This document shows positions 3,429 to 35,640 of a DNA stretch of 64,000 nucleotides, in pieces. Made by a program: the position numbers and the translations under genes. Origin of the DNA: Escherichia phage vB_EcoM-Ro121c4YLVW. Location of the stretch: sequence record NC_052654.1. One strand, written 5' to 3'. Positions within the stretch are counted from its first letter, which is position 1; each line of letters begins with the position of its first letter. The notes under the pieces are model-generated. The model saw only the letters and a list, made by a program, of their open reading frames with translations, was not told where the DNA came from and did no database searches.

Positions 3429-4264
3429 CATATCTGGTATTGGGCGGTAATGGACAACTGGGACAAGCTTTACGTAAAGTGGCTCCTTCAAATGTATCTT
3501 TAATTTATCCTAAAGAACGTGTAGATATTACAAATTTTGAAGCTGTGCGAAACGCTATTGTTGAAGATTATGTAGATGGTGTTATTAATTGCGCTGCTTA
3601 TACGGCTGTAGATAAAGCAGAACATGATTTTGCTACTGCTTTGGCTGTTAATTCCTACGGCCCTGCAAACATTGCAGCAGTGTGCAGTAAACTTAAAATT
3701 GATTTTGTGCATATTTCTACAGACTATATTTTTAATTACTCTCATCCTATTTTTGAAGATACTACACCTAACCCAATAAACAATTATGGGTATACGAAAG
3801 AACTTGGTGAAAAAATGGTGCGAGGAGTTAACCCAAATGCATATATTATTCGAACAGCCTCGGTATATAGCGAATTTGGAAATAACTTTCTAAAAACCAT
3901 GTTGTCTCGCTATAATGATGGACAACGTGATTTTATTATTGTTGCTGATCAGTTCTCTTGTCCAACATATGCTCCAGATTTAGCAGAAGCTATTTTTGAA
4001 GTATTAAAAACAGGTTGGTCAAGGTCTGTTAAGACTTACCATTTTGCAGGAAGCCATCTTATTTCTTGGGCGGAGTTTGCGGAAAAGATCTTGACACAGA
4101 TGCCAGAACCTGTTAAGATATCGGCGGTATCAGCTTCAACCTATAATGCTCCAGCAGCACGTCCGGTGAAGTCACAATTAGTAACCAGTCACTATCTTAC
4201 AAAATCAGATTTAAATAAAGGTATTGAACGGTCTTTAGCAGTATTACTTAATAAGGAGAGGTAA
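3422..4264 (+). CDS. rfbD: dTDP-4-dehydrorhamnose reductase
   Basis: LGGNGQLG N-terminal Rossmann motif, length and position after rfbC. Confidence 0.75.
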   Translation: MLTYLVLGGNGQLGQALRKVAPSNVSLIYPKERVDITNFEAVRNAIVEDYVDGVINCAAYTAVDKAEHDFATALAVNSYGPANIAAVCSKLKIDFVHISTDYIFNYSHPIFEDTTPNPINNYGYTKELGEKMVRGVNPNAYIIRTASVYSEFGNNFLKTMLSRYNDGQRDFIIVADQFSCPTYAPDLAEAIFEVLKTGWSRSVKTYHFAGSHLISWAEFAEKILTQMPEPVKISAVSASTYNAPAARPVKSQLVTSHYLTKSDLNKGIERSLAVLLNKER

Positions 4265-4524
4265 TGGAATTTGTAATTTTTGGTAAACCTAACTGTCAAT
4301 TTTGCGAAATGTCAAAACAACTATTAACCATGCGCAATAAACAGTTTGAATATTTAAGTCTTGACCAAGACTACGATTTAGAATCAATGACTAAAACAGT
4401 TGTTGATCTTACCGGAGTTCCTCCACGCACATTTCCACAAATTCTGTCTGAAGTGAACGGGGAGGTAACATACGTAGGCGGTTTTACCGAACTGCGTGAT
4501 CTCATGGCTCAAATTGCGGAGTAA
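4264..4524 (+). CDS. glutaredoxin/NrdC-like thiol-disulfide protein
   Basis: CQFC redox motif near N-terminus, about 86 aa, similar architecture to T4 NrdC. Confidence 0.55.
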   Translation: MEFVIFGKPNCQFCEMSKQLLTMRNKQFEYLSLDQDYDLESMTKTVVDLTGVPPRTFPQILSEVNGEVTYVGGFTELRDLMAQIAE

Positions 4525-19236: not shown

Positions 19237-19500
19237 CTAAATAACATCTTTGAAATAGTGAATCACTTCAATATTATGGTACAAAGTGCTTCGCTCTTTT
19301 GTGTACTCTGTTTTAGTAACAAACACTTTTGCAATACCGTACTTATGCGCTGGTAGGCTTGGATTGGTTTGCATAATTTCTTTCACTACACTTATAGTTT
19401 CGTGCTCGGATTCCCAATAAGTGAAGTAACCCTCACCATCAACGATTAAAGACTCGTTTTCAAGATCTACAAAACAGAAAAATATTGACGGATGGCTCAT
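19237..19500 (-). CDS. hypothetical protein
   Basis: ORF track 87 aa. Confidence 0.45.
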   Translation of the reverse strand: MSHPSIFFCFVDLENESLIVDGEGYFTYWESEHETISVVKEIMQTNPSLPAHKYGIAKVFVTKTEYTKERSTLYHNIEVIHYFKDVI

Positions 19501-19664
19501 TCTTTTTCTTCAACCTTCCTCAAAGCTTTTTGATCGAATATGGCGTGTTGCAATTCCCCGTTTTCATCGAACCAAGTTACTTTACAAGATTCACCATAAC
19601 TTTCTATTACTGTCATTTGTTTGTTTGCACCTTTAAGGCAAACCACATCACCTACTTGCATCAT
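19497..19664 (-). CDS. YodC/DUF2158-like small protein
   Basis: 55 aa MMQVGDVVCLKGANKQMTV... pattern; ATGA-coupled to downstream gene. Confidence 0.4.
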   Translation of the reverse strand: MMQVGDVVCLKGANKQMTVIESYGESCKVTWFDENGELQHAIFDQKALRKVEEKE

Positions 19665-20110
19665 GATTGAGTTCCTTTTTGTTTTTCAATAGCTGCACGA
19701 ATTTCTGCTAAAGGTTCTGCTACCAAGTCTTCAACTTCTTGGATTTGTTCATTCATCACATCACGAACCATTTGAATACGCTCTTCAAGGGAAACAGCAA
19801 GTTCATCTGCATAAGCCATATTAAGAACGTGGTAGAAATTTTCTTGTGCACTTAAAGCACCAGATAACAAATAATCCTGATCTTCCTCTGGTAAAAGCAT
19901 GTGTTGCTCATATTCAGCAAAAGTGTTTTTGTTAATCTCAAGCAAAGCACCCATCATAACATCATACTGATAATCTTTATGACCAGGGTTGTTTAAAATA
20001 ACATCTTCAAAAATATTAAGAAGAATCTTAGTAACAAAAGCATTGTTTTCGGCACCTTCCATCTGACGGATTACCGTGATTACTTCTTTTTCTTTAGCGT
20101 TTTGGCTCAT
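19661..20110 (-). CDS. hypothetical protein
   Basis: ORF track 149 aa. Confidence 0.5.
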   Translation of the reverse strand: MSQNAKEKEVITVIRQMEGAENNAFVTKILLNIFEDVILNNPGHKDYQYDVMMGALLEINKNTFAEYEQHMLLPEEDQDYLLSGALSAQENFYHVLNMAYADELAVSLEERIQMVRDVMNEQIQEVEDLVAEPLAEIRAAIEKQKGTQS

Positions 20111-20300
20111 AGTGTTTCTCCTCTGATTCTATTTGGATATAACCTGTGGTTTTGCACGGGTTACACTCGTAAATTTGACCTACGTCCGCCATAACATATC
20201 CTGCACCACCACAATAGGGGCAAGGCATAGGAGGACAAGGTATGGACGTAGTGATTGTTACGACATTATCAATTTCCAACATTTTCGCCATTACTACCAT
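20094..20300 (-). CDS. small zinc-ribbon protein (CPxCGGxG...CxxCxxxG)
   Basis: 68 aa with DnaJ-type CxxCxGxG-like motifs. Confidence 0.4.
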   Translation of the reverse strand: MVVMAKMLEIDNVVTITTSIPCPPMPCPYCGGAGYVMADVGQIYECNPCKTTGYIQIESEEKHYEPKR

Positions 20301-21876: not shown

Positions 21877-22072
21877 TTCTACCTCCTTCGATGCTTTGTG
21901 CCGTACCATCCCAAGCCATTAGAATATTTGCCAATAGTTCACGAGGCTCTTTAAACCAAACTTCCATTTCATCAAGAATCTCGTCCGTGTCGTAAGTATA
22001 ACCTGGAACACCAAGTTCGCATTTCTTAAGATAGCTTTCTAACCAGCGGTGATAATTCTTAACCCCATTCAT
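21869..22072 (-). CDS. hypothetical protein
   Basis: ORF track 67 aa. Confidence 0.4.
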   Translation of the reverse strand: MNGVKNYHRWLESYLKKCELGVPGYTYDTDEILDEMEVWFKEPRELLANILMAWDGTAQSIEGGRNE

Positions 22073-22397
22073 ACTGTGCTACCTTTTCTTTTACCCAATC
22101 TACACGATCTTTATCATAATGTTGAGTGCCAAGGAAAAGACCATTGTGGAAACTTTCCTCACCGAAAGGATAAATCGGATCTAAACCATCTTCTTCAAAT
22201 AACATTTTTAGTCTCTGTGATGTAGATTTCTTAGTTTCTGAGTTGTAGTTTGTGGTTATAAGCCAATCTTCCAAACAACGACACAAACCTTGACGAGAAT
22301 CCCAAGGAAAAACACAATCTCCGACAGGAGCTTGTTCAGCCCATTTCAACCAGCCTTTAAAAAAGTTATACAGTATGTAGTCTTCAGTGTAATACAT
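22059..22397 (-). CDS. paralog-family protein F (FY..W..GLC..PF..R..WV motif family)
   Basis: Shares motif pattern with five other genes; start at ATG after AAGGAGGAG. Confidence 0.5.
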   Translation of the reverse strand: MYYTEDYILYNFFKGWLKWAEQAPVGDCVFPWDSRQGLCRCLEDWLITTNYNSETKKSTSQRLKMLFEEDGLDPIYPFGEESFHNGLFLGTQHYDKDRVDWVKEKVAQYEWG

Positions 22398-22448
22398 TAT
22401 CTCCTCCTTTACGTATACAATAACACCCCGAAGAACGGGGTGCAACTG

Positions 22449-23060
22449 TTATTTAATCTGTTTGAAAATTTCGTTTGGAACGGTACCGTTTAAAATACCT
22501 TCTACGATCTCCTGTGCAGACGTGTAAGAGAGTCCAAAAGAAGCTACGCCTAAAATTGCCTCCTTCAAAGGATCTGGCAGGGGTTCAAAATTACCTGCAA
22601 CAAAGCCACCTGCACAAGCAGCGCCTTCATCATCCCAGAAAACAACTGCTACATCGTTACCATGCGAAGTTGTGCGATGTGCAATAACTTCAACTTCTGT
22701 TCCTTCTTTAGGAACAGAATAAGAACTGTCCCAAGAATATCTTTCCAAATCAGGAACAAAGATAACCTTTTCACCTACTGGCGGCAGTTCACAACGATAA
22801 TACCAAGAATTTTTTTCGTTCATTGTTTTATTTTCCTCCACGTCTTCAAAAGTAACGATCCAATCGTAGCCGTAAGAAAACGGATATTTTAGATCTAAAG
22901 AATAAGTTTGACCTAGATCGTCCTCAACAAGAACCATCCTGTCAAAGTTTGCGATGTTAGGATTATGTTTAATGATAGGGTATGTTTCCCCTACAGTAAA
23001 TTGCCCCAAATGGTAAAGTTCATCTCTCCAAGTAATTTGGATATGAGTGCATTGAATCAT
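22449..23060 (-). CDS. hypothetical protein
   Basis: ORF track 203 aa. Confidence 0.5.
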   Translation of the reverse strand: MIQCTHIQITWRDELYHLGQFTVGETYPIIKHNPNIANFDRMVLVEDDLGQTYSLDLKYPFSYGYDWIVTFEDVEENKTMNEKNSWYYRCELPPVGEKVIFVPDLERYSWDSSYSVPKEGTEVEVIAHRTTSHGNDVAVVFWDDEGAACAGGFVAGNFEPLPDPLKEAILGVASFGLSYTSAQEIVEGILNGTVPNEIFKQIK

Positions 23061-23064
23061 AAAA

Positions 23065-23337
23065 TCACCCCCAAGAAATATTTATATATCTTACAATGTT
23101 TGCACTGTCTAAAGCCATGTTTGCACCACACCCACGCTCGCGCCAGTAACTAACAATACCTTCACAGATACTCTCTTGTATCTTCTTATCACTTGGCATT
23201 TCTAGTATAAGACTTGGATTGTGGATGTTTATGTTATAATATCCTTCCTCTGCGGCTTGAGCTACCAATTTACTTACTTTTTCAAAGTACGGGGAATTAG
23301 TGGCATCTGCCATTGTTTTTAAGGTTTGTCTATCCAT
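23065..23337 (-). CDS. hypothetical protein
   Basis: ORF track 90 aa. Confidence 0.45.
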   Translation of the reverse strand: MDRQTLKTMADATNSPYFEKVSKLVAQAAEEGYYNINIHNPSLILEMPSDKKIQESICEGIVSYWRERGCGANMALDSANIVRYINISWG

Positions 23338-23702
23338 TATTCTGCCTCATCATAGAAGAAATCCAACTCTTGTTCCAGTTGTTTAACTCGATCCTTAACC
23401 CACTGTACACGTTTTTCATTAAACATGCAACGTTTTTCCTTACACTCTTGCTCAAAAGATTTTGCTGTGTTAAACGGGAAAGTTGTATCTAAACCAGCAT
23501 TTTCAAAACTGGCTAATTGCATACCATAAACAGAATATGCTAAAGAATGATCGGCTCGAAATTCATCACTTATATACATACGTAGACCTCGGCATAAGCC
23601 AACATCAGCGTAACCACTTTCTCGTGGAAAGAGACGGAGGTGTTCTAACCAATTATTATAGAAATCTAAAAGAATCCTCTTACACTTCAAATCAATTGTC
23701 AT
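23337..23702 (-). CDS. paralog-family protein E
   Basis: DFYNNWL...GLCRGL...FPFN...RVQWVKDRV; start after GAAGGAG. Confidence 0.5.
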   Translation of the reverse strand: MTIDLKCKRILLDFYNNWLEHLRLFPRESGYADVGLCRGLRMYISDEFRADHSLAYSVYGMQLASFENAGLDTTFPFNTAKSFEQECKEKRCMFNEKRVQWVKDRVKQLEQELDFFYDEAE

Positions 23703-24102
23703 AAAAAGTTTCTCCTTCATCGAACAAGTTGGCAAGATTGTTCACCGCAATTTGGGTGGAAAGAAGACAACTGTTTGCAGACACATAAGCACGGGCTATT
23801 TTGTAAACATAAGCTTTCGTATTGCAATCTTCTAAAATCGGAAGACTTTCATCGATAGCATCTATAACACTAAACATTACATCTAAAACTTTAATGGTGA
23901 GTGTTGTATTTGTATCTTCGTAACCTTTTTCAATCCGACCTGAATAGAAAGTATAGTCCTCAACAGTTCGTCGTTTAAATTGGCGCATAAAATCAGAACC
24001 ATCTGTAGCAGAATTGAACAAATTTTCAAAAAATACCTCCCATCCGGCAAAAAGGGCTGACAGCATGATTAAGTGGTCTACAGATTCATTTTCTTGTTTC
24101 AT
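23692..24102 (-). CDS. hypothetical protein
   Basis: ORF track 136 aa. Confidence 0.45.
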   Translation of the reverse strand: MKQENESVDHLIMLSALFAGWEVFFENLFNSATDGSDFMRQFKRRTVEDYTFYSGRIEKGYEDTNTTLTIKVLDVMFSVIDAIDESLPILEDCNTKAYVYKIARAYVSANSCLLSTQIAVNNLANLFDEGETFYDN

Positions 24103-24110
24103 ATCCTCTC

Positions 24111-24782
24111 CTATTTAATGTTCAATCTAGCACACAAGCGAGAAACAGTTTTAGCATCCCACTTACCACCACGTGCTGTTGCGATTTTCTTACTATTGAA
24201 TTTTTCAGCAATAGTTTTGTAAGGTGTATTTAAATCTCTAAGGATCTCCAAGCGTTCACGGAATGTCTCTGCAAAAGCGTCTGCTTTAACAGAATTGTAT
24301 TCCATTTTTCCTTTTCTACGTGCAGCGGCAGTTTTAGGATTAGCACTGCCTAATAAAACACCTTTGCTTTTTGCTACAGCAAGACCCTTTTTAATACGAT
24401 CAGCAATACCTCTGACTTCTTGTTCAGCCAGAACAGACAGAAGCTGTATAACCATTTTATCTGCATCTGGCATGATGGCTATCTTAACATCGATCATTTC
24501 TAGAAGAGTTGCTACGGAGGCGTTGTTACGACCCAAGCGGTCAACTTTAGCTACCAATAAAGTTGCTCCGGTAGCTTTACACATTTCAACCGCTTTGACC
24601 AGTTCCTTACGTTGCTTCCAATCGCCCTTACCCGAATAGTATTCAGAAAATTGACCAATAACTTCAGCATCAGGCACAGAGTCTAAGAAGTAACGGATAT
24701 CGTTCTCTTGGCTCTCCATACCATATTGTGCCTCACCTTTTTTCTGTTTAGAAAGACGACTGTAAACAACAAACTTTTTCAT
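24111..24782 (-). CDS. serine recombinase (resolvase/invertase family)
   Basis: N-terminal YSRLS catalytic motif and LLVAKVDRLGRN motif; C-terminal HTH-like region. Confidence 0.65.
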   Translation of the reverse strand: MKKFVVYSRLSKQKKGEAQYGMESQENDIRYFLDSVPDAEVIGQFSEYYSGKGDWKQRKELVKAVEMCKATGATLLVAKVDRLGRNNASVATLLEMIDVKIAIMPDADKMVIQLLSVLAEQEVRGIADRIKKGLAVAKSKGVLLGSANPKTAAARRKGKMEYNSVKADAFAETFRERLEILRDLNTPYKTIAEKFNSKKIATARGGKWDAKTVSRLCARLNIK

Positions 24783-24852
24783 AACCACTCCTAAACCATT
24801 GCTGTATTCTCACTTTACAAAACGAATAAACACTTGTCAAGGTATTTATTAT

Positions 24853-25065
24853 TTACAGCCATTCTACTTTTAAGCAGTATTCTTCGACATGTTGTTTACG
24901 CTTGTTTTTGTCTATGTAAGTGTATTCAACAAATGTCCCAAGATAATCCTTGTCCACATTGTGTTGGCTATTAATTGGACATTTAGTACGACAAACCCGT
25001 TGCCACTGACGAAGAATTACGGCTTTGTTTTTAGGATCAAAGGGATGAGGGTAATGTGCCTTCAT
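24853..25065 (-). CDS. hypothetical protein
   Basis: ORF track 70 aa. Confidence 0.4.
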   Translation of the reverse strand: MKAHYPHPFDPKNKAVILRQWQRVCRTKCPINSQHNVDKDYLGTFVEYTYIDKNKRKQHVEEYCLKVEWL

Positions 25066-25389
25066 TCACGCCTCCTGTTTTAGTCGAAAAATATTTTGAA
25101 TAACTAGAGATGTATAGTTATCACTTAGTCCCATAAGTTCTACTTCCAAGTTTCGAATATCTTCCACCGTAGGAGGATATGTTGGTAAAAATGCTTGAGC
25201 ATTGCCAGATCCGACCTCATTGCTGTAAGCAGTTGTAAAATTGTAAGATACAAAACATGAAACACCTTTTTGTCGGTACCCGATTAATCGACGAATACAC
25301 CAGATAAGAGCCAAACCTATGAGAACACCTCCTAAACCAGCCAACAAGAAGGATAAGTTCATAATAGCTTCGTTAACAACTGCTTGCAT
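25066..25389 (-). CDS. hypothetical membrane-anchored protein
   Basis: 107 aa, N-terminal hydrophobic helix. Confidence 0.4.
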   Translation of the reverse strand: MQAVVNEAIMNLSFLLAGLGGVLIGLALIWCIRRLIGYRQKGVSCFVSYNFTTAYSNEVGSGNAQAFLPTYPPTVEDIRNLEVELMGLSDNYTSLVIQNIFRLKQEA

Positions 25390-25399
25390 TCTTTTCTCC

Positions 25400-25699
25400 T
25401 TAGTTATGTAAACCCAAATGTGCTACAACTTCTCTACGATAAGATAACTGCATAGCGATTTTATAGCCAGGATGAAAACCATTTACATCAATGTCATCAA
25501 ACCAAACCTCAAACGAACCGTGCTTAAGGGTCATTAAGTTGATATACCATTCGATAGTATAATGATCGTTAGCAATACCTTCGATGTAAAACTCTCGGCA
25601 ACAATGAGATAAATCTTCACTTGTTTCACGTTTCCAGTCTTTGATAGCACCCTTCTCTTTAGCTTTATTCAGAATGTGGATCAGGTCTTCAACTTGCAT
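25400..25699 (-). CDS. hypothetical protein
   Basis: Start at ATG after AAAGGAGAG; 99 aa. Confidence 0.45.
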   Translation of the reverse strand: MQVEDLIHILNKAKEKGAIKDWKRETSEDLSHCCREFYIEGIANDHYTIEWYINLMTLKHGSFEVWFDDIDVNGFHPGYKIAMQLSYRREVVAHLGLHN

Positions 25700-25709
25700 A
25701 TTCTCTCCT

Positions 25710-26264
25710 TTAGTTCCAACTAATAACGATGTGTTTGATAATCCCAAAAATACTGTGCTCTGCGGTTGCCAATGTTACATCCAAACCTTTTGCACGTAGC
25801 ATTGTAGCTACAACATTTGCCCCTCTTTTCTGTTCACTTATCTGTTCATAAGAAGAAGGGTTATTGCACAAACCAAAACTGGAAGGTTCAAAGTATTTTT
25901 CAAACTTCCCTTGTTCTGCACAATCTTCAATCTCTAATAGAACGGCGTCTACCATTTCAGTAAAATGGGAATTTGCTTGCAGTGCTTTATTACGCAGTTT
26001 ATCACGTAAACTTCCCGTAGATTCTTCCTGCTCTTCTGTCTGTCCATCTTCACAGAAAGGATGAAGTTCAGCCCAGTCCCAAGCATCTCCTTCTAAAGCA
26101 AATGGAGTGTTGTAATTGAAGAAAGTGCAGCGCGGATATTCCCCGTTGAAAGAATCTTTCAGCAGAATATATTTCTTACCGTTTGCATGGAAGAGTTCTC
26201 CTTTGATAACCTTACCTACAAGGATATCACTGTTAGTGGAACGGGTGCAAATAAATTTTTTCAT
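25710..26264 (-). CDS. hypothetical protein
   Basis: ORF track 184 aa; RBS AGGAGAA. Confidence 0.5.
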   Translation of the reverse strand: MKKFICTRSTNSDILVGKVIKGELFHANGKKYILLKDSFNGEYPRCTFFNYNTPFALEGDAWDWAELHPFCEDGQTEEQEESTGSLRDKLRNKALQANSHFTEMVDAVLLEIEDCAEQGKFEKYFEPSSFGLCNNPSSYEQISEQKRGANVVATMLRAKGLDVTLATAEHSIFGIIKHIVISWN

Positions 26265-26326
26265 GATTTTCTCCTCTTTGTTTCGATGAGATGATTATGA
26301 CAAAGACAGATCCTTCTGTCAACTAT

Positions 26327-26548
26327 TTATTTCCATTCCCCTTGGTGTTCTTTGATCTCATAAGAGTAGTATTCGAACATGCTCATACAAACCACACCAG
26401 ACATTTCTAAACAAAGAGGTTTACTATTATAAAAGGCACTTATCATTCTTCCAGCTTTATCTGCTGACTCTTTAGTATCACATCCGCAAACTGTTCTCAC
26501 CCAAGGATTAGGGCCATCATACTTAAGACGCACAATCCACATGATCAT
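26327..26548 (-). CDS. hypothetical protein
   Basis: ORF track 73 aa. Confidence 0.4.
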   Translation of the reverse strand: MIMWIVRLKYDGPNPWVRTVCGCDTKESADKAGRMISAFYNSKPLCLEMSGVVCMSMFEYYSYEIKEHQGEWK

Positions 26549-26772
26549 TCTTCCATCTCAAACCATTCAGGGAACACTTTGCGGAAGACCCGCGTGTTTT
26601 CTAAGAGAAATTCCAACTCTTTTTCCAAATCTGCGTTCCAACCGTTTATTTTAACACGGATTGCCAATGCACTTGCACGGCGACTCAATTCTTGACAGAT
26701 TGGATCACGCAGAACTATTGAGTCATAAAACTGACAAACAGCCTCAAGTTCATACCAGTTATAATCCGACAT
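26545..26772 (-). CDS. hypothetical protein
   Basis: ORF track 75 aa. Confidence 0.4.
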   Translation of the reverse strand: MSDYNWYELEAVCQFYDSIVLRDPICQELSRRASALAIRVKINGWNADLEKELEFLLENTRVFRKVFPEWFEMEE

Positions 26773-27098
26773 TATTCATCCTCCTCTGCAATACGATCTC
26801 TTACCCAATTAATCCTGTCCACGTTCAGGTGACATACCTCTGCATCTGATTCTAAGATATATGCATCGTAGTTCTCATTGAAAGGGAGTGCTTGACTCAA
26901 CCCTTTGTGGTAAAACTGTGCGTGCATTTCATCTGACAAGATTGTTATAATGGGGTTGTAATTACCTCTGTGCACATAATCGAACAAGTTGGCACACAAA
27001 CCACAATCCCGCCGAAAAGGTTTACCATCAGGAGCACCAACATCAATCCATGCTAGATAAATTTTATAAAACTCCATCAACCTTGTGCTTGTTTTCAT
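26772..27098 (-). CDS. paralog-family protein D
   Basis: EFYKIYLAWI...GLCANL...LPFN...RINWVRDRI. Confidence 0.5.
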   Translation of the reverse strand: MKTSTRLMEFYKIYLAWIDVGAPDGKPFRRDCGLCANLFDYVHRGNYNPIITILSDEMHAQFYHKGLSQALPFNENYDAYILESDAEVCHLNVDRINWVRDRIAEEDE

Positions 27099-27336
27099 TT
27101 AGCCACCTCGTTAGTTTTTCTTGCTCTTTGTTTGCGCGTTCTAAGCTTCTGAACTTTAAACAGAGGGAACGAGAATCCCTACCCATGCACAAGCTTTCAT
27201 CTAAGCTGTGCTCCCCAACCAACCAAAGAGAGTATGTTTGAACATCTAACCCATAGTTTCTGTCTTTCCATAATCTCACCCCAAGAACATCAAAAGGAGC
27301 TTCCGCGACTAAAGAAAGAAACCGATCTTTATTCAT
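27064..27336 (-). CDS. hypothetical protein
   Basis: ORF track 90 aa. Confidence 0.35.
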   Translation of the reverse strand: MNKDRFLSLVAEAPFDVLGVRLWKDRNYGLDVQTYSLWLVGEHSLDESLCMGRDSRSLCLKFRSLERANKEQEKLTRWLNENKHKVDGVL

Positions 27337-27398
27337 ATTACACCACCTTGCTCACGTTGATAATGTATGTATACCATACATAAAATAAATGTCAAGGC

Positions 27399-27599
27399 TT
27401 ATCGACACAGATAGTTGTAACGATCTGCTTTATCCTCGGCTTCAGCAAAGTCAGCAATCAAGGAAGTTTTGAGTTCTTCCAACTCTTTCACCCAAGAGTC
27501 GTAATCGTTCTGTGTTTCTCCAATAGTTTGGAGAAAACAATCGTCGTAGCCAATAGACATGGCTAACTCGATAATACGTTCCAGTTTTTCTTCCATCAC
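27399..27599 (-). CDS. hypothetical protein
   Basis: ORF track 66 aa. Confidence 0.4.
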   Translation of the reverse strand: MMEEKLERIIELAMSIGYDDCFLQTIGETQNDYDSWVKELEELKTSLIADFAEAEDKADRYNYLCR

Positions 27600-27958
27600 T
27601 TCTCTCCTTCTACAGACTTCTGTTTAACATAAAAGTAAGCACCACGAGCAAGATACAAATCATGTTCAATATCGCTCACAGGAAAACCATCTGGATTTTT
27701 AAAACCGTCTTCTACAGCCAAAATGAGAGATCGTAAACTGATAGCTAACAACTCCATTTGATCTTGTAGTTTTCTATTTTCTGCATAAAGGTTTTTGCAT
27801 TTTTGTTCTGCATTTTTCCATTGTTCTAATGCATGATCATAGTTTCGCATAAGGATAGCTTTTTCTTGTTCACGTTTAAAAGTTTCTTCACAAATGAAAC
27901 CCGTGCCTAAACCAGTTTCTTCATCTTTGACAAACACTTCAACAAAATCTTTAGACAT
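27596..27958 (-). CDS. hypothetical coiled-coil protein
   Basis: Start at ATG after AGGAGATAA; about 120 aa. Confidence 0.45.
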   Translation of the reverse strand: MSKDFVEVFVKDEETGLGTGFICEETFKREQEKAILMRNYDHALEQWKNAEQKCKNLYAENRKLQDQMELLAISLRSLILAVEDGFKNPDGFPVSDIEHDLYLARGAYFYVKQKSVEGEK

Positions 27959-27959
27959 A

Positions 27960-28223
27960 TTATCTCCTATTTGCTTTTGGATACTCCCAACCCTCTGGGA
28001 GATCTTCTTTACACATCCACTCAAAAGGCCAGCGACAATAACTGTGCCACTTTCCATCGAGATACAAGCAATCTTCATCCACTGGTCCACAAGGGTTGAT
28101 AACTACAACACACCCTTTTGCTCGCCAATATTGAACTATTTCAGGGTAAAAACAAGAAACGTCGGTCCACTCCCAAATACGTTCATCATTCAAACGGTAT
28201 GCTGCTGGCAATGTCTCTTTCAT
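27960..28223 (-). CDS. hypothetical Trp/Cys-rich protein
   Basis: ORF track 87 aa. Confidence 0.4.
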   Translation of the reverse strand: MKETLPAAYRLNDERIWEWTDVSCFYPEIVQYWRAKGCVVVINPCGPVDEDCLYLDGKWHSYCRWPFEWMCKEDLPEGWEYPKANRR

Positions 28224-28227
28224 ATTA

Positions 28228-28674
28228 TTAAACCTCTGTCAAAGAGAAACGCCAATCCTTACTACTACCTACACCAAGGAAGATATAGTCTCCGGTACTA
28301 ACGGAATATCTCCAAGCGGGAATCCAATCAGGAATCTCTGGCTTATGGCTGTAGCCATAACGCTCGCCACTCGAATCTGTTGCAATATAATTAACAAATT
28401 CAGGAACCTCTAAAGTTTCACCTTGATACTCTACACGCTTGAAGCCATCTTCCACTTCTTTCTCACCTTCTACCAGAAGGGCAAGAAATTTGATGTGAGG
28501 GCAAGTGAAATCTTGTCCTGGATAACGTGAACGGATATCTGTTAACAATGCGACTACAGCATCCGATAACTCTTTATAATCCTCATATCTTACAAATGTG
28601 CCTTCTGTCGGATCATCAGGACACAAACGCCAAACATCGTTGCAGTTTACAGCGTAATGTCTCATTTTAGTCAT
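28228..28674 (-). CDS. hypothetical protein
   Basis: ORF track 148 aa. Confidence 0.5.
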   Translation of the reverse strand: MTKMRHYAVNCNDVWRLCPDDPTEGTFVRYEDYKELSDAVVALLTDIRSRYPGQDFTCPHIKFLALLVEGEKEVEDGFKRVEYQGETLEVPEFVNYIATDSSGERYGYSHKPEIPDWIPAWRYSVSTGDYIFLGVGSSKDWRFSLTEV

Positions 28675-28683
28675 AAATCCCCC

Positions 28684-29082
28684 TTATCGTTGCGTACAAT
28701 CAGCTTCTAGAGTAAGAACATTCGTTATTGTTTTATCATTTTTTAGAAATGCAAACCAAGCCAAAGTGTCTCGATACTCTGTGCGCATCATTACTACTTC
28801 AGTAGTGCCAATAAATTGTTGTGAACCGTACATAGCACTACCATCTTTACTTTTTTCTCCTGTGTATTGCAGAATGCCACTCATCAAAGCACCACCTGAA
28901 TTTTTAAGGATAAAGGAGTTATCTTTATTAATGACAACAGAAGCCATTTTCTTAGGACCAGAAATCACTTCACCTTTCAGATTTTTAACAACCACATCTG
29001 ACACACACTCATAAACTTGAGACGCATTTGCTGTTCCAAGTGATGCAACGAGTAGCAATAAACCTACAATGATCTTTTTCAT
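28684..29082 (-). CDS. secreted/periplasmic protein (signal peptide)
   Basis: MKKIIVGLLLLVASLGTANA-SQ signal-peptide-like N-terminus. Confidence 0.5.
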   Translation of the reverse strand: MKKIIVGLLLLVASLGTANASQVYECVSDVVVKNLKGEVISGPKKMASVVINKDNSFILKNSGGALMSGILQYTGEKSKDGSAMYGSQQFIGTTEVVMMRTEYRDTLAWFAFLKNDKTITNVLTLEADCTQR

Positions 29083-29177
29083 ATAAACTCTCCTCTTTAT
29101 TTACCCGACGCGCCCCTGTTGGGCGGAAAGGGTTGTACGCAAAATTTTTAGCTCCAATCGTCGGGTGTCCCGACTCC

Positions 29178-29384
29178 TTACGCTTTTAATGTTTTAACAG
29201 AATGACAAGCTTTGCAAACCATAACCGGAACAAGTTCATCTCCATTATCCGCATAAATCACTGTTTTCTTCATTCTGCCACCGCATGAACAATACTCTGT
29301 ATGATCCGCAGGAATATTAAATATTCCGTAATCACTTTCATACTGTTTCTTACATATGGACACTGCTTTCGTAAAACAAGACAT
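29178..29384 (-). CDS. small zinc-ribbon protein
   Basis: CSCGG...CKAC pairs; 68 aa. Confidence 0.4.
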   Translation of the reverse strand: MSCFTKAVSICKKQYESDYGIFNIPADHTEYCSCGGRMKKTVIYADNGDELVPVMVCKACHSVKTLKA

Positions 29385-29386
29385 GC

Positions 29387-29608
29387 CTACTCCGCAAGAA
29401 CCTTCACTTCGTCAGAGAAGAATACGTAATCACAACCTTCCCAAACATCTTCTTCAAACCACTCCCATCCCTCGACTTTGGACATTTCTTCTATCGTAAC
29501 AAAGAATGTTGTCATATCCTCACTAACAAGATGTGCTTCAACAACAAAAGGAATCTGAACATTCTCAAAACCAACATAACCCAATACATCACAAACTCTA
29601 ATTTTCAT
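29387..29608 (-). CDS. hypothetical protein (DYVFF pair, member 1)
   Basis: 73 aa; shares W..E.....EG.DYVFF motif with 32900-33130. Confidence 0.4.
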   Translation of the reverse strand: MKIRVCDVLGYVGFENVQIPFVVEAHLVSEDMTTFFVTIEEMSKVEGWEWFEEDVWEGCDYVFFSDEVKVLAE

Positions 29609-29609
29609 A

Positions 29610-29810
29610 TTATGCTCCTTTGTAGATTATGTTGGTGCGTTCACACTCTGCCACCAGCAAGCGATTAGCAATGTTGTCCATAGGAACATCAATCTCTACG
29701 CTCCAAGCGTTGATATACACTTCTTCAATCTTTGCTCCAAGCATTTGTGCGATCAGAGCAACAGCGCCAGCATACTCAAGTTTAATCTCAATTACCATTT
29801 TGCACCTCAA
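29610..29810 (-). CDS. hypothetical protein
   Basis: ORF track 66 aa. Confidence 0.4.
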   Translation of the reverse strand: MRCKMVIEIKLEYAGAVALIAQMLGAKIEEVYINAWSVEIDVPMDNIANRLLVAECERTNIIYKGA

Positions 29811-29812
29811 GG

Positions 29813-30013
29813 TTATTTGTCTTGCTTGTATCTTACAAGGCGATCACACTCCAGGTCAAGAAATTTCTCCGCATTTCGTTCATGTTTGAGCACAATACAT
29901 TGTTCTTTCCAGTCTGTAGCTCTTTGCTGCGCTGCTCCTGGGTCAAAATCCCAAAGCCATGCCGCGAAAAGAACAACCATAACAATTACCAAGAAACTAA
30001 ACACTATTGGCAT
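29813..30013 (-). CDS. small membrane protein
   Basis: Start at ATG after CAGGAGGA; one TM helix. Confidence 0.4.
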   Translation of the reverse strand: MPIVFSFLVIVMVVLFAAWLWDFDPGAAQQRATDWKEQCIVLKHERNAEKFLDLECDRLVRYKQDK

Positions 30014-30318
30014 TGCACATCCTCCTGTGTAGCATGATCTTTTACCCATTTTATACGGGCAGCATTCAAATGCAATAGCCCGTTTCTTTGTGCAAAATCA
30101 TATTTAAACCAGTCTCCGTCATCAAACGGGTATTCTTCAGACAATCCTGCTTCTCGAAATTGCATTTGCATTTCATAATTTAGGTCATCATAACCACCAG
30201 ACCAAAGATAGAGGCAACTGCACAAACCTTTATCGTGCCAGAAAGGATTATTATCTGGAGCACCAGCTAACAGCCAATTATGATAGGCTTGATAAAATTC
30301 TTTAAGTTCTTCTGACAT
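30004..30318 (-). CDS. paralog-family protein C
   Basis: EFYQAYHNWL...GLCSCL...YPFD...RIKWVKDH. Confidence 0.5.
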   Translation of the reverse strand: MSEELKEFYQAYHNWLLAGAPDNNPFWHDKGLCSCLYLWSGGYDDLNYEMQMQFREAGLSEEYPFDDGDWFKYDFAQRNGLLHLNAARIKWVKDHATQEDVQCQ

Positions 30319-30516
30319 TTAACCCCCTGTGTACAGTGTTGAAAGATACACAGCAAAAGCATTCTCGGCTGTTTTAACCTCCTCTTCAAGATCTTCACGC
30401 TCTGCTGGCGTTAGCGCATTTCGCACAGCAGCGTCTGCTTCTCGGATTTTTCTTACTAAACGTGAAACATCTTTCAGTTGTTGAAAAGTAGCCATAATCT
30501 TCCTCCTTTTAGTCAA
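30319..30516 (-). CDS. hypothetical protein
   Basis: ORF track 65 aa. Confidence 0.4.
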   Translation of the reverse strand: MTKRRKIMATFQQLKDVSRLVRKIREADAAVRNALTPAEREDLEEEVKTAENAFAVYLSTLYTGG

Positions 30517-30742
30517 ACCAGTTGTATTCGGAAGGGTAACGAGCGTAGTTTGGCTTGTACCCCAGTCTTTTCATCTTAACAGACATACGAGTGAAGCCAA
30601 AGGTTGTTTTGCCCTTAGACATAAACTTCTTCCCACTCTTCATTGGCTTCTTAGGGTTTTTGATCGTCTGGTGTAACGCTCGCGCAAGCCACAAAGTGTA
30701 TGCGCTCGGCACTTGATTAACTTTCATCTTGTTACCTTTCAT
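30509..30742 (-). CDS. small basic protein (possible nucleic-acid binding)
   Basis: Start at ATG after TGAGGAGG; Lys/Arg-rich, 77 aa. Confidence 0.4.
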   Translation of the reverse strand: MKGNKMKVNQVPSAYTLWLARALHQTIKNPKKPMKSGKKFMSKGKTTFGFTRMSVKMKRLGYKPNYARYPSEYNWFD

Positions 30743-30752
30743 CGAAACCTCC

Positions 30753-30980
30753 TCAGTGAACTTCGTGCCAAGTGCCAAACTCTTCTGCTGATACTTTAGG
30801 AACGGCATGAGTTTCTCGGTATTTGTTTAAAGCTTTCTCAATGGCTGTAGCAAAAACATCTTGTGATTTATAAGGCATATAATAAGAGCGTCCCATGTAT
30901 GCCACTGCATCACGTAATTCTTCTGCTTGCTCTTGTGTAACTGTCAATGTGATAGTAACCATTATTTCACCTCCGACCAA
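30753..30980 (-). CDS. hypothetical protein
   Basis: ORF track 75 aa. Confidence 0.4.
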   Translation of the reverse strand: MVGGEIMVTITLTVTQEQAEELRDAVAYMGRSYYMPYKSQDVFATAIEKALNKYRETHAVPKVSAEEFGTWHEVH

Positions 30981-31261
30981 TCAATAGTGATCCACTCGTA
31001 TGCCCCGTTCAGATCCATTTCTTTATAAACAATAAGCCCACGCTCACGAAGAATTGCTACTGCTTCATCCATCCACTTCACCTGATTGTAGATCTCCCCT
31101 GGGTGGGTAGGGGAATTATCCAGACCAAAATCAGATGGCGTGAAATTTCTTGAAGAGTTTCCCGCTCGTGCTTCAGCAAAACATGTCTCGATCACTTCTT
31201 CAACAGGGAAGTTGAAGGAAGCTTCTTTTGCAATACGGCGTAACTGTTCGGTCAGATTCAT
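30962..31261 (-). CDS. hypothetical protein
   Basis: ORF track 99 aa. Confidence 0.45.
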   Translation of the reverse strand: MNLTEQLRRIAKEASFNFPVEEVIETCFAEARAGNSSRNFTPSDFGLDNSPTHPGEIYNQVKWMDEAVAILRERGLIVYKEMDLNGAYEWITIDWSEVK

Positions 31262-31288
31262 TTTATTCTCCTTTCGTTGTGCGAAACA

Positions 31289-31726
31289 TTACAGCAGATC
31301 TAATGCTTTCAACTCTTCTTTCAATGATTCAGGCAGGTCACATTCAATGTCAATCAGAGATAACAAGTGACCAACAATGCCTTCCAGATGTTGATACTCA
31401 CTATAACTTATAAATTCAGAATTGTAAACAGAAACATCCTTAGTTTCTTTCACAACTTCCCCCGCAGACACGCACATAAAAAAGTTACGCTCTCCGCGAG
31501 CTAACAATATCTCCCAACTTCTGAACGGATACTGTCCAGCTTCAATAATATCTCCGCTGTCCAATAAGGTCAATGAGCAAACAGACCCTGATTCACTAAC
31601 ATCTTCGACGCGGAAACAAGACCCTTCAATCAAAGCTGCCATTTTGAAATTTTCATCAGAGATCATAGAGAAAGCTTCACATGCAGCTTTGCTTTTGAAA
31701 CAGTAAACAGCATTAATTTTAAACAT
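31289..31726 (-). CDS. hypothetical protein
   Basis: ORF track 145 aa. Confidence 0.5.
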   Translation of the reverse strand: MFKINAVYCFKSKAACEAFSMISDENFKMAALIEGSCFRVEDVSESGSVCSLTLLDSGDIIEAGQYPFRSWEILLARGERNFFMCVSAGEVVKETKDVSVYNSEFISYSEYQHLEGIVGHLLSLIDIECDLPESLKEELKALDLL

Positions 31727-31738
31727 AACATTCTCCTT

Positions 31739-32197
31739 TTAAACAAAAGATACGCCGATGGTAGCAACAACCAAACGTTTATAAACTTCAACCTCTTCTG
31801 TAGGATTAGCCATTTTATGCTCCGCTGCTTCTTTCAAAGCTTCTTCATAATTTTGAGATCCAGAAATACAGGTGTCACCAGTCATTACAACATACCACTC
31901 TTCTTTTGTTGTATCAACAGGTTCTTCTTGGGGTTTTCCACGACCACCACGAACACCACCGTCAACAAAATAATCTATATGAGCAGAATTGATTATGTAA
32001 CGATCCCCATCACCAGCAGTGATAATACCATCTCTCATACCTATTACAACCATTGACAAGATATTACCATTTGCATCAGTGCTCAACACCTCGAAAAAAT
32101 TCTCTCCAATGATAGCCGCAATACTGTTATCAAAGGTAGAATATAGTCGCATATAATCCTCATCCTGGAAACGGTAGACATGACCTTCTTTAAACAT
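31739..32197 (-). CDS. hypothetical protein
   Basis: ORF track 152 aa. Confidence 0.5.
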   Translation of the reverse strand: MFKEGHVYRFQDEDYMRLYSTFDNSIAAIIGENFFEVLSTDANGNILSMVVIGMRDGIITAGDGDRYIINSAHIDYFVDGGVRGGRGKPQEEPVDTTKEEWYVVMTGDTCISGSQNYEEALKEAAEHKMANPTEEVEVYKRLVVATIGVSFV

Positions 32198-32651
32198 TGC
32201 TCTCTCCTCCTAGTTCATCATACCATTTCAAAGCGTCTTTTGGAAGCATACCAAAATCTTCTTTTAGCTCTTTTTCAATCTCTTCTTGCATTTCCATCAG
32301 CATTTTCAATTGACGGACTTTTTTGTGCATAGCCACATTCCTTTCATTAAGGTTTGTCACTACATTATTTGCACGACTCGGTGGAAACGACAAAGGTTTC
32401 ACGGGAAGATAATCTTCGATATTATCTAGTGCGTTACGAAAATTATGATCCAAGAAACGCACATCTACACGATTGTAATCGGCAGCTACAACAGTGAACA
32501 CTTTAAACGGCACATTGGATAAAGTATGTTGCACACAGACAGTACCCATATTACCTTCAATTTTACTGGTAACTTCCAGCACACCTGTATGAGCACTAAC
32601 ATAATCGTGAACACATTGCACATAGGCTGCCAGTATAGTGAATTGTCTCAT
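32190..32651 (-). CDS. hypothetical protein
   Basis: ORF track 153 aa. Confidence 0.5.
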   Translation of the reverse strand: MRQFTILAAYVQCVHDYVSAHTGVLEVTSKIEGNMGTVCVQHTLSNVPFKVFTVVAADYNRVDVRFLDHNFRNALDNIEDYLPVKPLSFPPSRANNVVTNLNERNVAMHKKVRQLKMLMEMQEEIEKELKEDFGMLPKDALKWYDELGGESNV

Positions 32652-32896
32652 TTTCTACCTCCCCATAATGCTAACATTTTATTGAAAATGGAAACGCGTC
32701 GTGCGCGAGATGCCATATCATAATTCATTCTTTCCGTCTCTGCAAGAAATTGATCTACGGTAATCAACGCTTTTGTCTTCTCTTTCAGAGTTTGCATATT
32801 CATCCATTCACATTCAGAGTACCAATTATCGAAATACAAACTATCGAGAAGATCCATTGCTGCTTCATTCTGTTGTGGTGTGATCATTGCACACAA
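32648..32896 (-). CDS. hypothetical protein
   Basis: ORF track 82 aa. Confidence 0.4.
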   Translation of the reverse strand: MCAMITPQQNEAAMDLLDSLYFDNWYSECEWMNMQTLKEKTKALITVDQFLAETERMNYDMASRARRVSIFNKMLALWGGRK

Positions 32897-32899
32897 CCC

Positions 32900-33130
32900 T
32901 TAATAGACAATTTCATATTCGTGAGGAAAGAAAACATAATCTTCCCCTTCTCGTGCATCTATCTCGTCCCAAAACCATTCCTGCACTTCCATCATCTTCG
33001 AGAATCGCACATGAGCAAGCCCACTGTATTCCACCGTAGCTTCCAACACAAGTGGGAATTTTGCACGGGTAAGTCCTTTATAACCACCATCATTCTCAAT
33101 ACGAATTTTCATGCGTTTCATGTTATGCAT
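32900..33130 (-). CDS. hypothetical protein (DYVFF pair, member 2)
   Basis: 76 aa; W.WDEIDAREGEDYVFF. Confidence 0.4.
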   Translation of the reverse strand: MHNMKRMKIRIENDGGYKGLTRAKFPLVLEATVEYSGLAHVRFSKMMEVQEWFWDEIDAREGEDYVFFPHEYEIVY

Positions 33131-33332
33131 CCTTCAGACCCTTAATAAAGTAACGACCAACCGGATTCCCTCGGAAGTATTCGTTAATGAAATCGATAAC
33201 ACACGTTTCACTGCCTGTCACAACGGACGGCTTAAAGTTTTGGAATTCTACAGCTACACGGCTGGCTTTAGCCAGTGCTTGCACACGTGTAGGATCAGTC
33301 AAGAACATTGTGACAGTTTTCAAATTCTTCAT
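33123..33332 (-). CDS. hypothetical protein
   Basis: ORF track 69 aa. Confidence 0.4.
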   Translation of the reverse strand: MKNLKTVTMFLTDPTRVQALAKASRVAVEFQNFKPSVVTGSETCVIDFINEYFRGNPVGRYFIKGLKDA

Positions 33333-33381
33333 TTCATCTCCTCATTGGCTATCTGCTATGTCATCCATTATACAAACATCT

Positions 33382-33750
33382 TTATTCAATGCAAGCATTA
33401 TTTGCATCTTCAATGCGATCTTTCACCCATTGCACACGAAACTTGTTGGTATGACACGCTAAAGCTATACACTCTGAAAGGTAATCCATGCAATCTGCAT
33501 TGAACGGAAGATTGTAGTCCAGCCCTGCACATGTAAATTGTTTCCTCATTTCATATTTCAAACGGTCTAACAAATGATCACGCCATCTTCTATCTTCTTC
33601 TCTAGTTGTCTCACCAACAAAATCATCTACATAGTCTACCAGACAACCACATAAGCCACTCGTTGTGCGATTCATTGCAGGATAGTTGGCAATCCATGCT
33701 TTATAGAAGCGAAGCAATGTTGCACTACTCAACGGAATACTATTTGTCAT
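33382..33750 (-). CDS. paralog-family protein B
   Basis: RFYKAWI...GLCGCL...LPFN...RVQWVKDRI; start after AAGGAGAGAA. Confidence 0.5.
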   Translation of the reverse strand: MTNSIPLSSATLLRFYKAWIANYPAMNRTTSGLCGCLVDYVDDFVGETTREEDRRWRDHLLDRLKYEMRKQFTCAGLDYNLPFNADCMDYLSECIALACHTNKFRVQWVKDRIEDANNACIE

Positions 33751-34084
33751 TTTTCTCTCCTTCATAATCTTGAATTCTATCTAGCACCCATTGTATACGA
33801 TGTTTGTTTTTATGGCAAATATGTTTTTTATGTTCGAAGGTGTATTCCTCATAACCACCTTCATTAAACGGGAAATTGTAATCCAATCCTGCACCAATAA
33901 ACTGTGATTTCATCTCCTGTTGTAGACGAGGTAACAGTTCATCAGGATATGTTCCCTCTACATACTTAATCAAACATATGCACAAACCACTCGTTGTGTG
34001 ACCTTCTACCTCACCAGCAAGCCAAGCTTTGTAAAACTTCATTAGACGTAAACTGCTCAACGGAACATTTTTACTCTTTTGCAT
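33740..34084 (-). CDS. paralog-family protein A
   Basis: KFYKAWL...GLCICL...FPFN...RIQWVLDRI. Confidence 0.5.
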   Translation of the reverse strand: MQKSKNVPLSSLRLMKFYKAWLAGEVEGHTTSGLCICLIKYVEGTYPDELLPRLQQEMKSQFIGAGLDYNFPFNEGGYEEYTFEHKKHICHKNKHRIQWVLDRIQDYEGEKNDK

Positions 34085-34089
34085 GACAA

Positions 34090-35640
34090 TCTCCTCTCAT
34101 CGTTAGCCATCTTTCATGGCAATCATCAATCACCAACATCATACGATCAATCTTAGGGAATTACAATCGAATTATCATAGGGGATTCCTATCAATTATCC
34201 CATATATACCGATTATTTTTGACACCCCACTCTTGTATAAAAAGTAACCCAAAATATCTACGGGGAGAGATTATTTCGGGACACCCTGTTTCATAGCAAT
34301 CATGGCAAGAATATCTAATAGAATCAATATGATATGGCAAAAATCATGGCGCATACGTAAGAAGTGCTTAACGCGAATTTTCGGGCCGTCAGGTCCACGC
34401 AGCGACAATTCCCAAATATCATGCGAATGAGAATAATTATCATTCGTATTCAATGACTTATGCAAGGCTCATGCCAACATAGCGACAAGGTGGGCCACTT
34501 GATTATAAATCACACAAACACTTATTTATCAATGGTTTGGCAACTTCATCATATGACGGAACAATGTCAACTGATCCCGCTCATGACAAGCAGACTATTA
34601 TTTATATGAGAATGATTATTATTTAAACGTTTATTAACATATAAACTAAAATAAATCAAGAATTTTCTGATTTTATTTACGTTTAAGAGAAGGTGCTCAA
34701 CATATCGCTACGCGATAGTATTCGCCCCCAAAAGATTAGCCTTTATTTTCTTGTATGTTTATACACTGCGTGTACATCTATGTGCACACTATGCAACCTG
34801 TCGCTATTCGCTCATGTTGCTACGTGCAATTATTCATCTTGCTAATGATTTCATATTGTAACTATTACAATGACTATTGTTATTGCGCTAATGTTATGAT
34901 CTTGGTAATTACATATAATGCTAATAATAAGCCAGCGCAATAAGTGTAAGCGTCATTACGCTTGCAATTATTGCAAGCTACGCAGTAACAAGAAATAACC
35001 GTCACCGATGGTTATGATTGTTGGGGTGTAGTTGGCTTATTATTAGCTCGCTATGTGTCCGGCATAGCGTGCTAATGATGACTCTGTGAATGATTCGTTT
35101 TGTAATGATTTCATTCAGGCACTATTTTGCTAATAGTTATTATTTTAATGGTTTCGTTTGTTATTGTTCGTTAGTTGGTTGTTTTGTCGTGTTATCGTTA
35201 TCTTGCTTAGTATTCATCATGGTTTGATTGTTTGTCATTATCAATCATCTTGCTATTATTCCTTTGATTATGATTAGTTTGCTTATTGTTTTAGGTTGTT
35301 GGTTGGTTAGTTGTTGCGAACTATTATCAACATTATAGTTATGCACTTATATTGCATAGATAAACATGGATAGATGATAATGGTTATCATTGCACCAGAA
35401 AGGAGGTAAAAGGGTGTTTTTGATGGTTTGTTGTTGGTTGTTGATCGATTTTAACCGCTTTAAATGGCTCTCTAACAGCCTGTTACCCTGGGAGGTATGG
35501 TTATTCATTTAATGGTTGATTAGCTTGATACCACTATTTATTCAGTTTTGTTCTGTGTCGGTTTTCCATAGGCGGAATCTATCAACATTGTTCGGGCAAA
35601 AAGAAAGGGCGCTTGGTGCGCCCCTTGTTTTGTTGTCGAT
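34090..35640. other. about 1.5 kb non-coding region with strand-skewed composition, palindromes and Fur-box-like motifs
   Basis: No ATG ORF with RBS; T/G-rich top strand; palindrome at 34936-34975; motifs at 34421-34441 and 34601-34620. Confidence 0.5.
35606..35630. terminator. bidirectional terminator
   Basis: agggcgcttggtgcgccc hairpin flanked by A-run upstream and T-run downstream. Confidence 0.55.

Follow-up and report, generated by a model that had tools for sequence, protein, structure and literature searches.

Six paralogous genes in the leftward block of a Phapecoctavirus belong to a widespread family of small phage proteins that includes N4 gp3

We analysed a 64,000-nucleotide stretch (the window) of the genome of Escherichia phage vB_EcoM-Ro121c4YLVW (NC_052654.1), in which an initial annotation had pointed to six small genes with shared motifs. 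The 20 Phapecoctavirus genomes that match best (subfamily Stephanstirmvirinae, phAPEC8 group; genome size about 150 kb) cover 94-100% of positions 22000-34200 with 96.4-98.4% identity. Three of the six proteins, copy 6 among them, were compared with database entries and proved identical to vB_EcoM-Ro121c4YLVW proteins. All six open reading frames (ORFs) are present on the minus strand at the positions listed in Table 1, and their start codons are backed by Shine-Dalgarno sequences and by the same gene lengths annotated in relatives. They lie within a block of small minus-strand genes (~17.7-34.1 kb) with negative guanine-cytosine skew, nearly all of which are labelled hypothetical in relatives, and the proposed setting in an early block of a virulent phage was borne out. 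Residue numbering throughout follows copy 3.

A full-length alignment of the six proteins (26-30% identity) contains 15 invariant columns, among which are the G, L, C, P, F, R, W and V of the family motif set. These columns reproduce the motifs that had been read from the sequence at the outset, namely FY..W, GLC..L, F..(A)GL, PF(N/D/G) and R..WV. Each copy was run with phmmer against the window's 689 ORFs from six-frame translation, and only family members were matched, with pairwise E values of 2e-3 to 1e-28; the copy 1 query missed copy 5, and the reciprocal query with copy 5 found copy 1 at E 2e-3. A profile hidden Markov model (HMM) built from any five copies recovered the sixth at E 5e-16 to 1e-29 (4.7e-16 for copy 1 and 1e-29 for copy 6) and gave no other window ORF at E<10, which refutes a chance resemblance of motifs. 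A broader HMM of 172 domains recovered all six copies together with N4 gp3 and RSB1 ORF5. No seventh copy was found by HMM in the window, and the complete genome of phage ESCO25, which is 98% identical, likewise has exactly six copies, all inside the same block. The six genes are confirmed, at the level of sequence comparison, as true paralogs of a real and old family, with phmmer, leave-one-out HMM and phrog_2510 matches far beyond chance.

The individual copies are described in Table 1. The full set of conserved polar residues is kept in copies 3, 5 and 6. Copy 6 is preceded by a GAGGAG ribosome-binding site and is called gp001 in the annotation of phage Schickermooser. The ATG of copy 5 (position 33750) is located within the last codons of copy 6, creating an 11-nt overlap, and a GAAGGAG Shine-Dalgarno sequence is present inside the 3' end of copy 6; translational coupling of the two genes is likely. 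The six proteins have isoelectric points (pI) of 4.54-6.96 and net charges of 0 to -10, and the median pI of the family is 5.5.

Table 1. Positions of the six family genes, of flanking elements and of other genes of the block mentioned in the text.
Feature	Position	Strand	Description
Copy 6 (m6)	33740..34084	-	114 residues; phAPEC8_0018 ortholog; opens the leftward block; full motif set
Copy 5 (m5)	33382..33750	-	122 residues; helices 2 and 3 separated by a long, variable insertion; most polymorphic locus
Copy 4 (m4)	30004..30318	-	104 residues; phAPEC8_0030; lacks E82 and C88; N73D; most constrained copy
Copy 3 (m3)	26772..27098	-	108 residues; phAPEC8_0041; full motif set; copy used for the structure model
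Copy 2 (m2)	23337..23702	-	121 residues; phAPEC8_0051; lacks E56, Q60 and H89
Copy 1 (m1)	22059..22397	-	112 residues; phAPEC8_0054; subtype B; lacks E56, Q60, N73 and E82
Non-coding leader	34085..35603	-	about 1.5 kb, AT-rich, with an A/C-rich tract and no long ORF; upstream of copy 6
Bidirectional terminator-like hairpin	35604-35626	both	G+C-rich; bounds the leader
Terminator-like hairpin	22423-22443	-	8-bp stem with 6 G-C pairs; 25 nt upstream of the copy 1 start
Paralog pair, first	25710-26264 and 30962-31261	-	similar at phmmer E 1e-7
Paralog pair, second	29387-29608 and 32900-33130	-	similar at phmmer E 2e-11
Paralog pair, third	31289-31726 and 31739-32197	-	both phrog_3710
Recombinase-like gene	24111-24788	-	mid-block; Pfam Resolvase E 5e-18; phrog_125
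DUF2158 gene	19497-19664	-	small protein, downstream in the same block; Pfam E 6e-9
Variable gene	28228-28674	-	71% identical in ev052 and Schickermooser
Variable gene	32190-32651	-	56% identical in Schickermooser
Variable gene	33123-33332	-	77% identical in SKA64; absent from ZCKP1

All six copies match phrog_2510, the function of which is unassigned, at E 5e-25 to 3e-31 over profile positions ~5-113 (5.6e-26 for copy 6), and show weaker matches to phrog_6418 and phrog_27059. That the family carries no named or characterised domain proved correct. Pfam and NCBIfam gave no match for the six copies, and Pfam gave no family match among 132 diverse members. The only match in a PADLOC scan of the six was a weak, partial one to PifA (E 0.017, spanning 46 residues), and a profile search of PDB sequences returned nothing at E≤10. 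A word-indexed homolog search with the 132-sequence alignment yielded 21 proteins only, with no informative names or domains. The family is already catalogued as PHROG 2510, but without functional characterisation; our literature search turned up no paper addressing what any member, PHROG 2510 or N4 gp3 does. The genome-wide CRISPRi-ART screens cover T4, T5, SUSP1 and PTXU04, and neither N4 nor a Phapecoctavirus; the abstract and section headings of a transposon-sequencing (Tn-seq) preprint name only JS26 and PCH45.

The family extends far beyond the present genus. A HMMER search of 1.84 billion cluster representatives (clusters at 50% identity) gave 1,735 clusters that passed E≤1e-3, of which 731 also passed E≤1e-10, and a tblastn search with copy 3 matched 256 phage records. 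These include Stephanstirmvirinae, Schitoviridae with Enquatrovirus N4 isolates, Autographiviridae (RSB1, RHEph02 and RHEph08), T1-like Drexlerviridae, a Salmonella phage of 161 kb and a jumbo Erwinia phage. The old age first proposed for the family stands. The family is not confined to the present phage group, with at least 1,735 clusters in several phage families, N4 gp3 among them. The named hosts are almost all Proteobacteria of the Alpha-, Beta- and Gammaproteobacteria; five records labelled 'Campylobacter' among the tblastn matches are probably mislabelled. Over the block, MG065650.1 ('Campylobacter phage B15') and OP562383.1 ('Acinetobacter phage vB_AbaM_ABPW7') are ~97% identical to Escherichia coli Phapecoctavirus genomes, which suggests mislabelled hosts or contaminating phages. 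The only plasmid match is a 93-kb phage-plasmid-like element with phd/doc. The most conserved motif was also sought in 185,579 bacterial and archaeal genomes (one per species), where it matched a single 367-bp contig; the pattern is narrow, so that the absence of the family from bacteria is only suggestive. The same narrow motif confirmed no locus in IMG/VR.

Members occupy early regions in Schitoviridae, Autographiviridae and Drexlerviridae. The N4 member is gp3 (ABK54374.1 / A0MZ95_BPN4; family HMM ~4e-21), the third gene at the early left end, placed between gp1/gp2 and gp15/gp16, which are early products (PMC4496689). The RSB1 member is ORF5 (family HMM ~6e-19), two genes upstream of a gp0.7-like kinase, and other early-region members are RHEph08 gp06 and gp07 and those at 2-5 kb in N4-like Achromobacter, Erwinia and Delftia phages. 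In phage SusanneMuster_Bas79 (PQ850629.1) we noted a member at 3893-4294 on the plus strand (HMM E 1.5e-30) that is unannotated in the record, which instead annotates the opposite-strand ORF Bas79_0090 and a short fragment, Bas79_0089. The proteins of PHROG 2510, including N4 gp3 and RSB1 ORF5, share length, motif set and early-region position with the six copies; most phages carry one or two copies, in contrast to the six spread over 12 kb in the present genus.

An AlphaFold2 model of copy 3, built from a 33-sequence alignment, reached a predicted local distance difference test score (pLDDT) of 94 and a predicted template-modelling score (pTM) of 0.86. The model contains five helices, comprising residues 5-19, 34-43, 50-64, 77-85 and 93-107. 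A Foldseek search with the model against 350,542 chains gave a best E of 1.9 with template-modelling (TM) scores ≤0.34, and a search of predicted viral structures (BFVD) gave 20 matches at E≤3e-3 with TM scores up to 0.87, all of them uncharacterised proteins from phages of Proteobacteria. The fold is confidently predicted and has no solved relative. For the two-domain fusion protein P0049, the model was confident for domain 2; domain 1 lacked alignment depth and the overall pTM was 0.62.

Conservation of single residues was computed over 172 domain instances with ~18-35% overall identity. Pro71 and Arg94 are conserved at 100%, Cys34 and Phe72 at 99%, Gly32 at 97%, Tyr10, Leu33 and Phe61 at 95%, and Leu6, Phe9, Trp16, Asn91 and Trp97 at 92%; Glu56, Gln60, Asn73, Tyr79, Glu82 and His89 follow at 69-81%. 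The motif set F-Y, W, G-L-C, (Q)F..AGL, P-F-(N/G) and N/D-x-x-R-x-x-W-V is present family-wide at 92-100%. In the model, Cys34 is placed at the N-terminus of helix 2 and Arg94 in the first turn of helix 5, with the Pro-Phe-Asn and His-x-Asn motifs in loops on either side of helix 4. Two subtypes can be distinguished, PFN...CHxN..R (A) and PFG...QHxD..R (B), in which positions 73 and 91 switch jointly.

Four close relatives and Klebsiella phage ZCKP1 share the synteny of all six copies, and the copies fall into two classes. In ZCKP1, copies 1, 2 and 4 are 97-99% identical to those of the window (99% for copy 4), compared with 51%, 50% and 43% for copies 3, 5 and 6, while most neighbouring genes are 94-100% identical. 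Copy 2 is 98-100% identical in five relatives including ZCKP1; copy 3 is 91-94% identical in close relatives and 82% in phiWec190, a phage with eight copies that are 38-82% identical to the nearest window copy. The ratio of non-synonymous to synonymous substitution rates (dN/dS; Nei-Gojobori estimates against four relatives) is about 0.01 for copy 4 (0-1 non-synonymous versus 9-20 synonymous differences), about 0.03 for copy 2 and about 0.1 for copy 1, and amounts to 0.05-0.25 for copy 6, 0.2-0.5 for copy 5 and 0.15-0.5 for copy 3. All six copies are under purifying selection and encode functional proteins, and within the genus a stable subset (copies 1, 2 and 4) stands against a fast-turnover subset (copies 3, 5 and 6). 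The family had been called diversifying; this fits copies 3, 5 and 6, with their allelic replacement and many alleles, but not the conserved copies 1, 2 and 4 or the purifying selection that acts on all six.

Turnover is most evident at the adjacent pair formed by copies 5 and 6. The copy 5 locus holds at least 20 distinct 90%-identity clusters of its allele type, and the entropy of these alleles is highest around helix 4 and in the loop that joins helices 2 and 3, with constant termini. Two clusters are recombinant chimeras of copies 6 and 5: in P0009, residues 1-70 derive from copy 6 (66/70 identical) and the remainder from copy 5 (38/42 identical), and in P0006 (198 member sequences) only the N-terminus is that of copy 6 and the body is that of copy 5. 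Amplification and fusion were also observed elsewhere in the family. Seven family genes, with eight domains in all, are packed into 12 kb of a 62-kb metagenomic contig; in RHEph08 a two-domain gene comes after a single-domain one; and fusions of 2-3 domains, mostly of one subtype, account for 21/144 top representatives. One distant representative is fused to DUF551, itself without an assigned function. Other genes of the block vary among relatives as well, with three examples given in Table 1.

Upstream of copy 6 lies the leader, in which several weak sigma-70-like matches (34138-34299) and short direct and inverted repeats were found; Rfam and tRNA scans of the leader were without match. ESCO25 has the same gap at 133714-135175. 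The leader is presumably the promoter region of the block. At the other end of the gene family, Schickermooser annotates a terminator at the site of the hairpin at 22423-22443, and because this terminator-like hairpin precedes copy 1, that copy may be expressed by read-through or apart from the upstream genes. Three further pairs of paralogs were noted in the block (Table 1), the third of which is labelled 'goF / RNA metabolism modulator' in phAPEC8_ev052, and the whole early block appears to be built by repeated duplication. The recombinase-like gene in mid-block resembles serine recombinases and DNA invertases, and the label 'methionine ABC transporter ATP-binding protein' that it bears in relatives looks like an annotation error. 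A small DUF2158 protein is also encoded in the block. The label 'Lar family restriction alleviation' given in SKA64 to the ORF at 20094-20300 has no supporting Pfam match and was not used as evidence of context.

Several known systems were compared with the family. Large virulent phages such as SPO1 and T4 carry families of paralogous small ORFs in modules that are early or devoted to host takeover; the six genes are alike in being small, early and multi-copy and in standing beside other paralog pairs, and differ in belonging to a family that spans several phage families with an unusually conserved motif set. T7 Ocr (gp0.3) and other first-expressed anti-restriction proteins compare with the family in being small, all-helical, acidic and early; the Autographiviridae members of the family are among the genes that precede the gp0.7-like kinase, and in the window copy 6 opens the block. 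This likeness is an analogy of position and size only: neither in sequence nor in fold do the six copies resemble Ocr or any other PDB entry, and the Ocr sequence is not known to have a counterpart of the invariant Cys, Arg and PF motif. Nor was similarity in sequence or fold found to other solved anti-defence or takeover proteins in the PDB, among them ArdA, AsiA, Acb2, Tad1/2 and Gad1. DNA mimicry was considered and rejected, the charge being modest at pI 4.54-6.96 (net 0 to -10) against the pI below about 4.5 and the densely negative surface expected of a mimic. A HEPN RNase was rejected on both motif and fold, since the R-x(4-6)-H motif on a four-helix bundle is absent, and a Fic/Doc enzyme was rejected because H-x-F-x-(D/E)-G-N-G-R-x-x-R does not occur in the alignments and Pfam gives no Fic match.

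We tentatively favour the explanation that the six genes encode immediate-early, host-directed binding proteins in which a rigid scaffold displays variable specificity loops. The genes would represent a lineage-specific expansion of a widespread 'N4 gp3-like' phage domain, and each product would be soluble and mildly acidic, with its ~100 residues arranged in a compact fold of five helices. Made immediately after infection, the proteins may act stoichiometrically on host components, be they defence or takeover targets. The scaffold would be fixed by a near-invariant core or site (Phe9-Tyr10, Trp16, Gly32-Leu33-Cys34, Phe61, Pro71-Phe72, Asn91, Arg94 and Trp97), and target specificity would be set by the variable helix 1-2 loop, helix 2-3 loop and helix 4. 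Because the scaffold presents variable specificity elements, each paralog could address a different target or target variant. The proteins probably function as dimers or in tandem modules.

Position, copy-number dynamics and mosaicism are the grounds on which we infer a role in host interaction or anti-defence, which had been suggested at the outset. In unrelated phage families, members map within a few kb of the start of the early region, and copies 6 and 5 are the first genes after the leader. The family has been amplified recurrently and independently, up to the eight copies of phiWec190, and has formed fusions; mosaic turnover is observed at copies 5 and 6 and at copy 3. By its database matches, the family appears confined to phages of Proteobacteria and one phage-plasmid. 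A binding scaffold is favoured because variation concentrates in loops, because copy number and alleles behave like those of accessory host-interaction genes, and because several conserved polar residues have been lost from the copies under the tightest constraint: copies 1, 2 and 4 lack several of E56, Q60, H89 and E82, which fits scaffold-plus-surface binding better than shared catalysis. Other observations weigh against this explanation. Cys34 (99%), Arg94 (100%) and Pro71-Phe72 (100% and 99%) are invariant across hosts from Alpha- to Gammaproteobacteria; pure protein-protein inhibitors do not usually show such invariance, which points to chemistry or a conserved ligand. No ortholog comparison gave a dN/dS above 1, and homology searches link no member to a host target. 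Mosaicism is common to the whole block, so that allelic replacement is not unique to the six-copy family, and the fusion model (pTM 0.62) is too poor to define a pseudo-dimer.

The invariance of these residues is the starting point of the main rival to the scaffold explanation, a small-molecule binder ('sponge') or thiol-dependent enzyme, which we regard as rather unlikely. On this view Cys34, Arg94 and Glu56/Gln60/Glu82 would form a putative pocket together with the PF(N) and (C)H-x-N loops. The ligand to be sequestered or modified would be a conserved metabolite, a metal or an immune signalling nucleotide, and might differ among the paralogs. Cys34, Arg94, Pro71 and Phe72 are near-absolute, with Asn91 at 92%, despite the low overall identity; the covariation of Asn73/Asn91 with Gly73/Asp91 between subtypes suggests that the two loops form one site; and conservation over phages of Alpha-, Beta- and Gammaproteobacteria fits a universal ligand. 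The sponges Tad1, Tad2 and Acb2 are small early proteins found in many phage families, with few invariant aromatic or basic pocket residues, and are resembled by the six-copy family in small size, early position and oligomer-like tandem fusions, the last of which hint at oligomers. The analogy is functional only, with no detectable homology or fold match to these three or to any other solved sponge or enzyme, and several paralogs lack putative pocket residues. Copies 1 and 2 lack Glu56 and Gln60 (copy 2 also His89, copy 1 also Asn73 and Glu82) and are nonetheless under strong purifying selection, and many of the conserved residues can be read from the predicted secondary structure as helix caps or core positions. 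We consider improbable a stronger form of the proposal, in which a previously unrecognised fold with an invariant Cys-Arg site sequesters or modifies a conserved molecule of the host, for instance a cofactor, a metal or an immune signalling nucleotide.

We likewise hold it improbable that the proteins serve inside the phage programme, with a part, for instance, in the transcription, replication or DNA protection of the phage as early regulators or adaptors. Members do lie in early blocks beside regulators and DNA-metabolism genes, gp1 and gp2 next to N4 gp3 are transcription cofactors, and the strong conservation of copies 1, 2 and 4 would suit such a role. The family is, however, found in phages with different transcription and replication strategies, with a virion RNA polymerase in N4, a T7-like RNA polymerase in RSB1 and RHEph08, and further members in Drexlerviridae and Stephanstirmvirinae; the proteins are acidic to neutral (pI 4.5-7.0) with no nucleic-acid-binding signature, and copy numbers of 1 to 8 with swapped alleles are atypical of core regulators. 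Chance motif resemblance, or decaying duplicates without function, might be suspected from the low pairwise identity of 26-30%; both are excluded by the leave-one-out HMM statistics, the confident fold, the six-copy synteny and the dN/dS of 0.01-0.5.

Small early genes hold most of the host-takeover and counter-defence tools of phages, and most of them are unannotated. The family described here is a good target among them, being large and occurring in E. coli phages both classic and therapeutic (N4, phAPEC8-like and T1-like). Its invariant Cys/Arg/Pro-Phe signature is sharply defined and directly mutable, and the model is confident without a solved relative. The window also offers an internal comparison, of three stable copies with a partial polar site and three with the full site, with the fastest turnover in the lead pair. 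Should the Cys-Arg site prove to sequester or modify a host molecule, it would define a new class of counter-defence sponge or enzyme in thousands of phages including N4, and Phapecoctaviruses would carry a battery of six specificities in which the hypervariable lead pair tracks the diversity of host defence. The family thus provides a tractable entry point, and a functional result would annotate thousands of phage genes at once.

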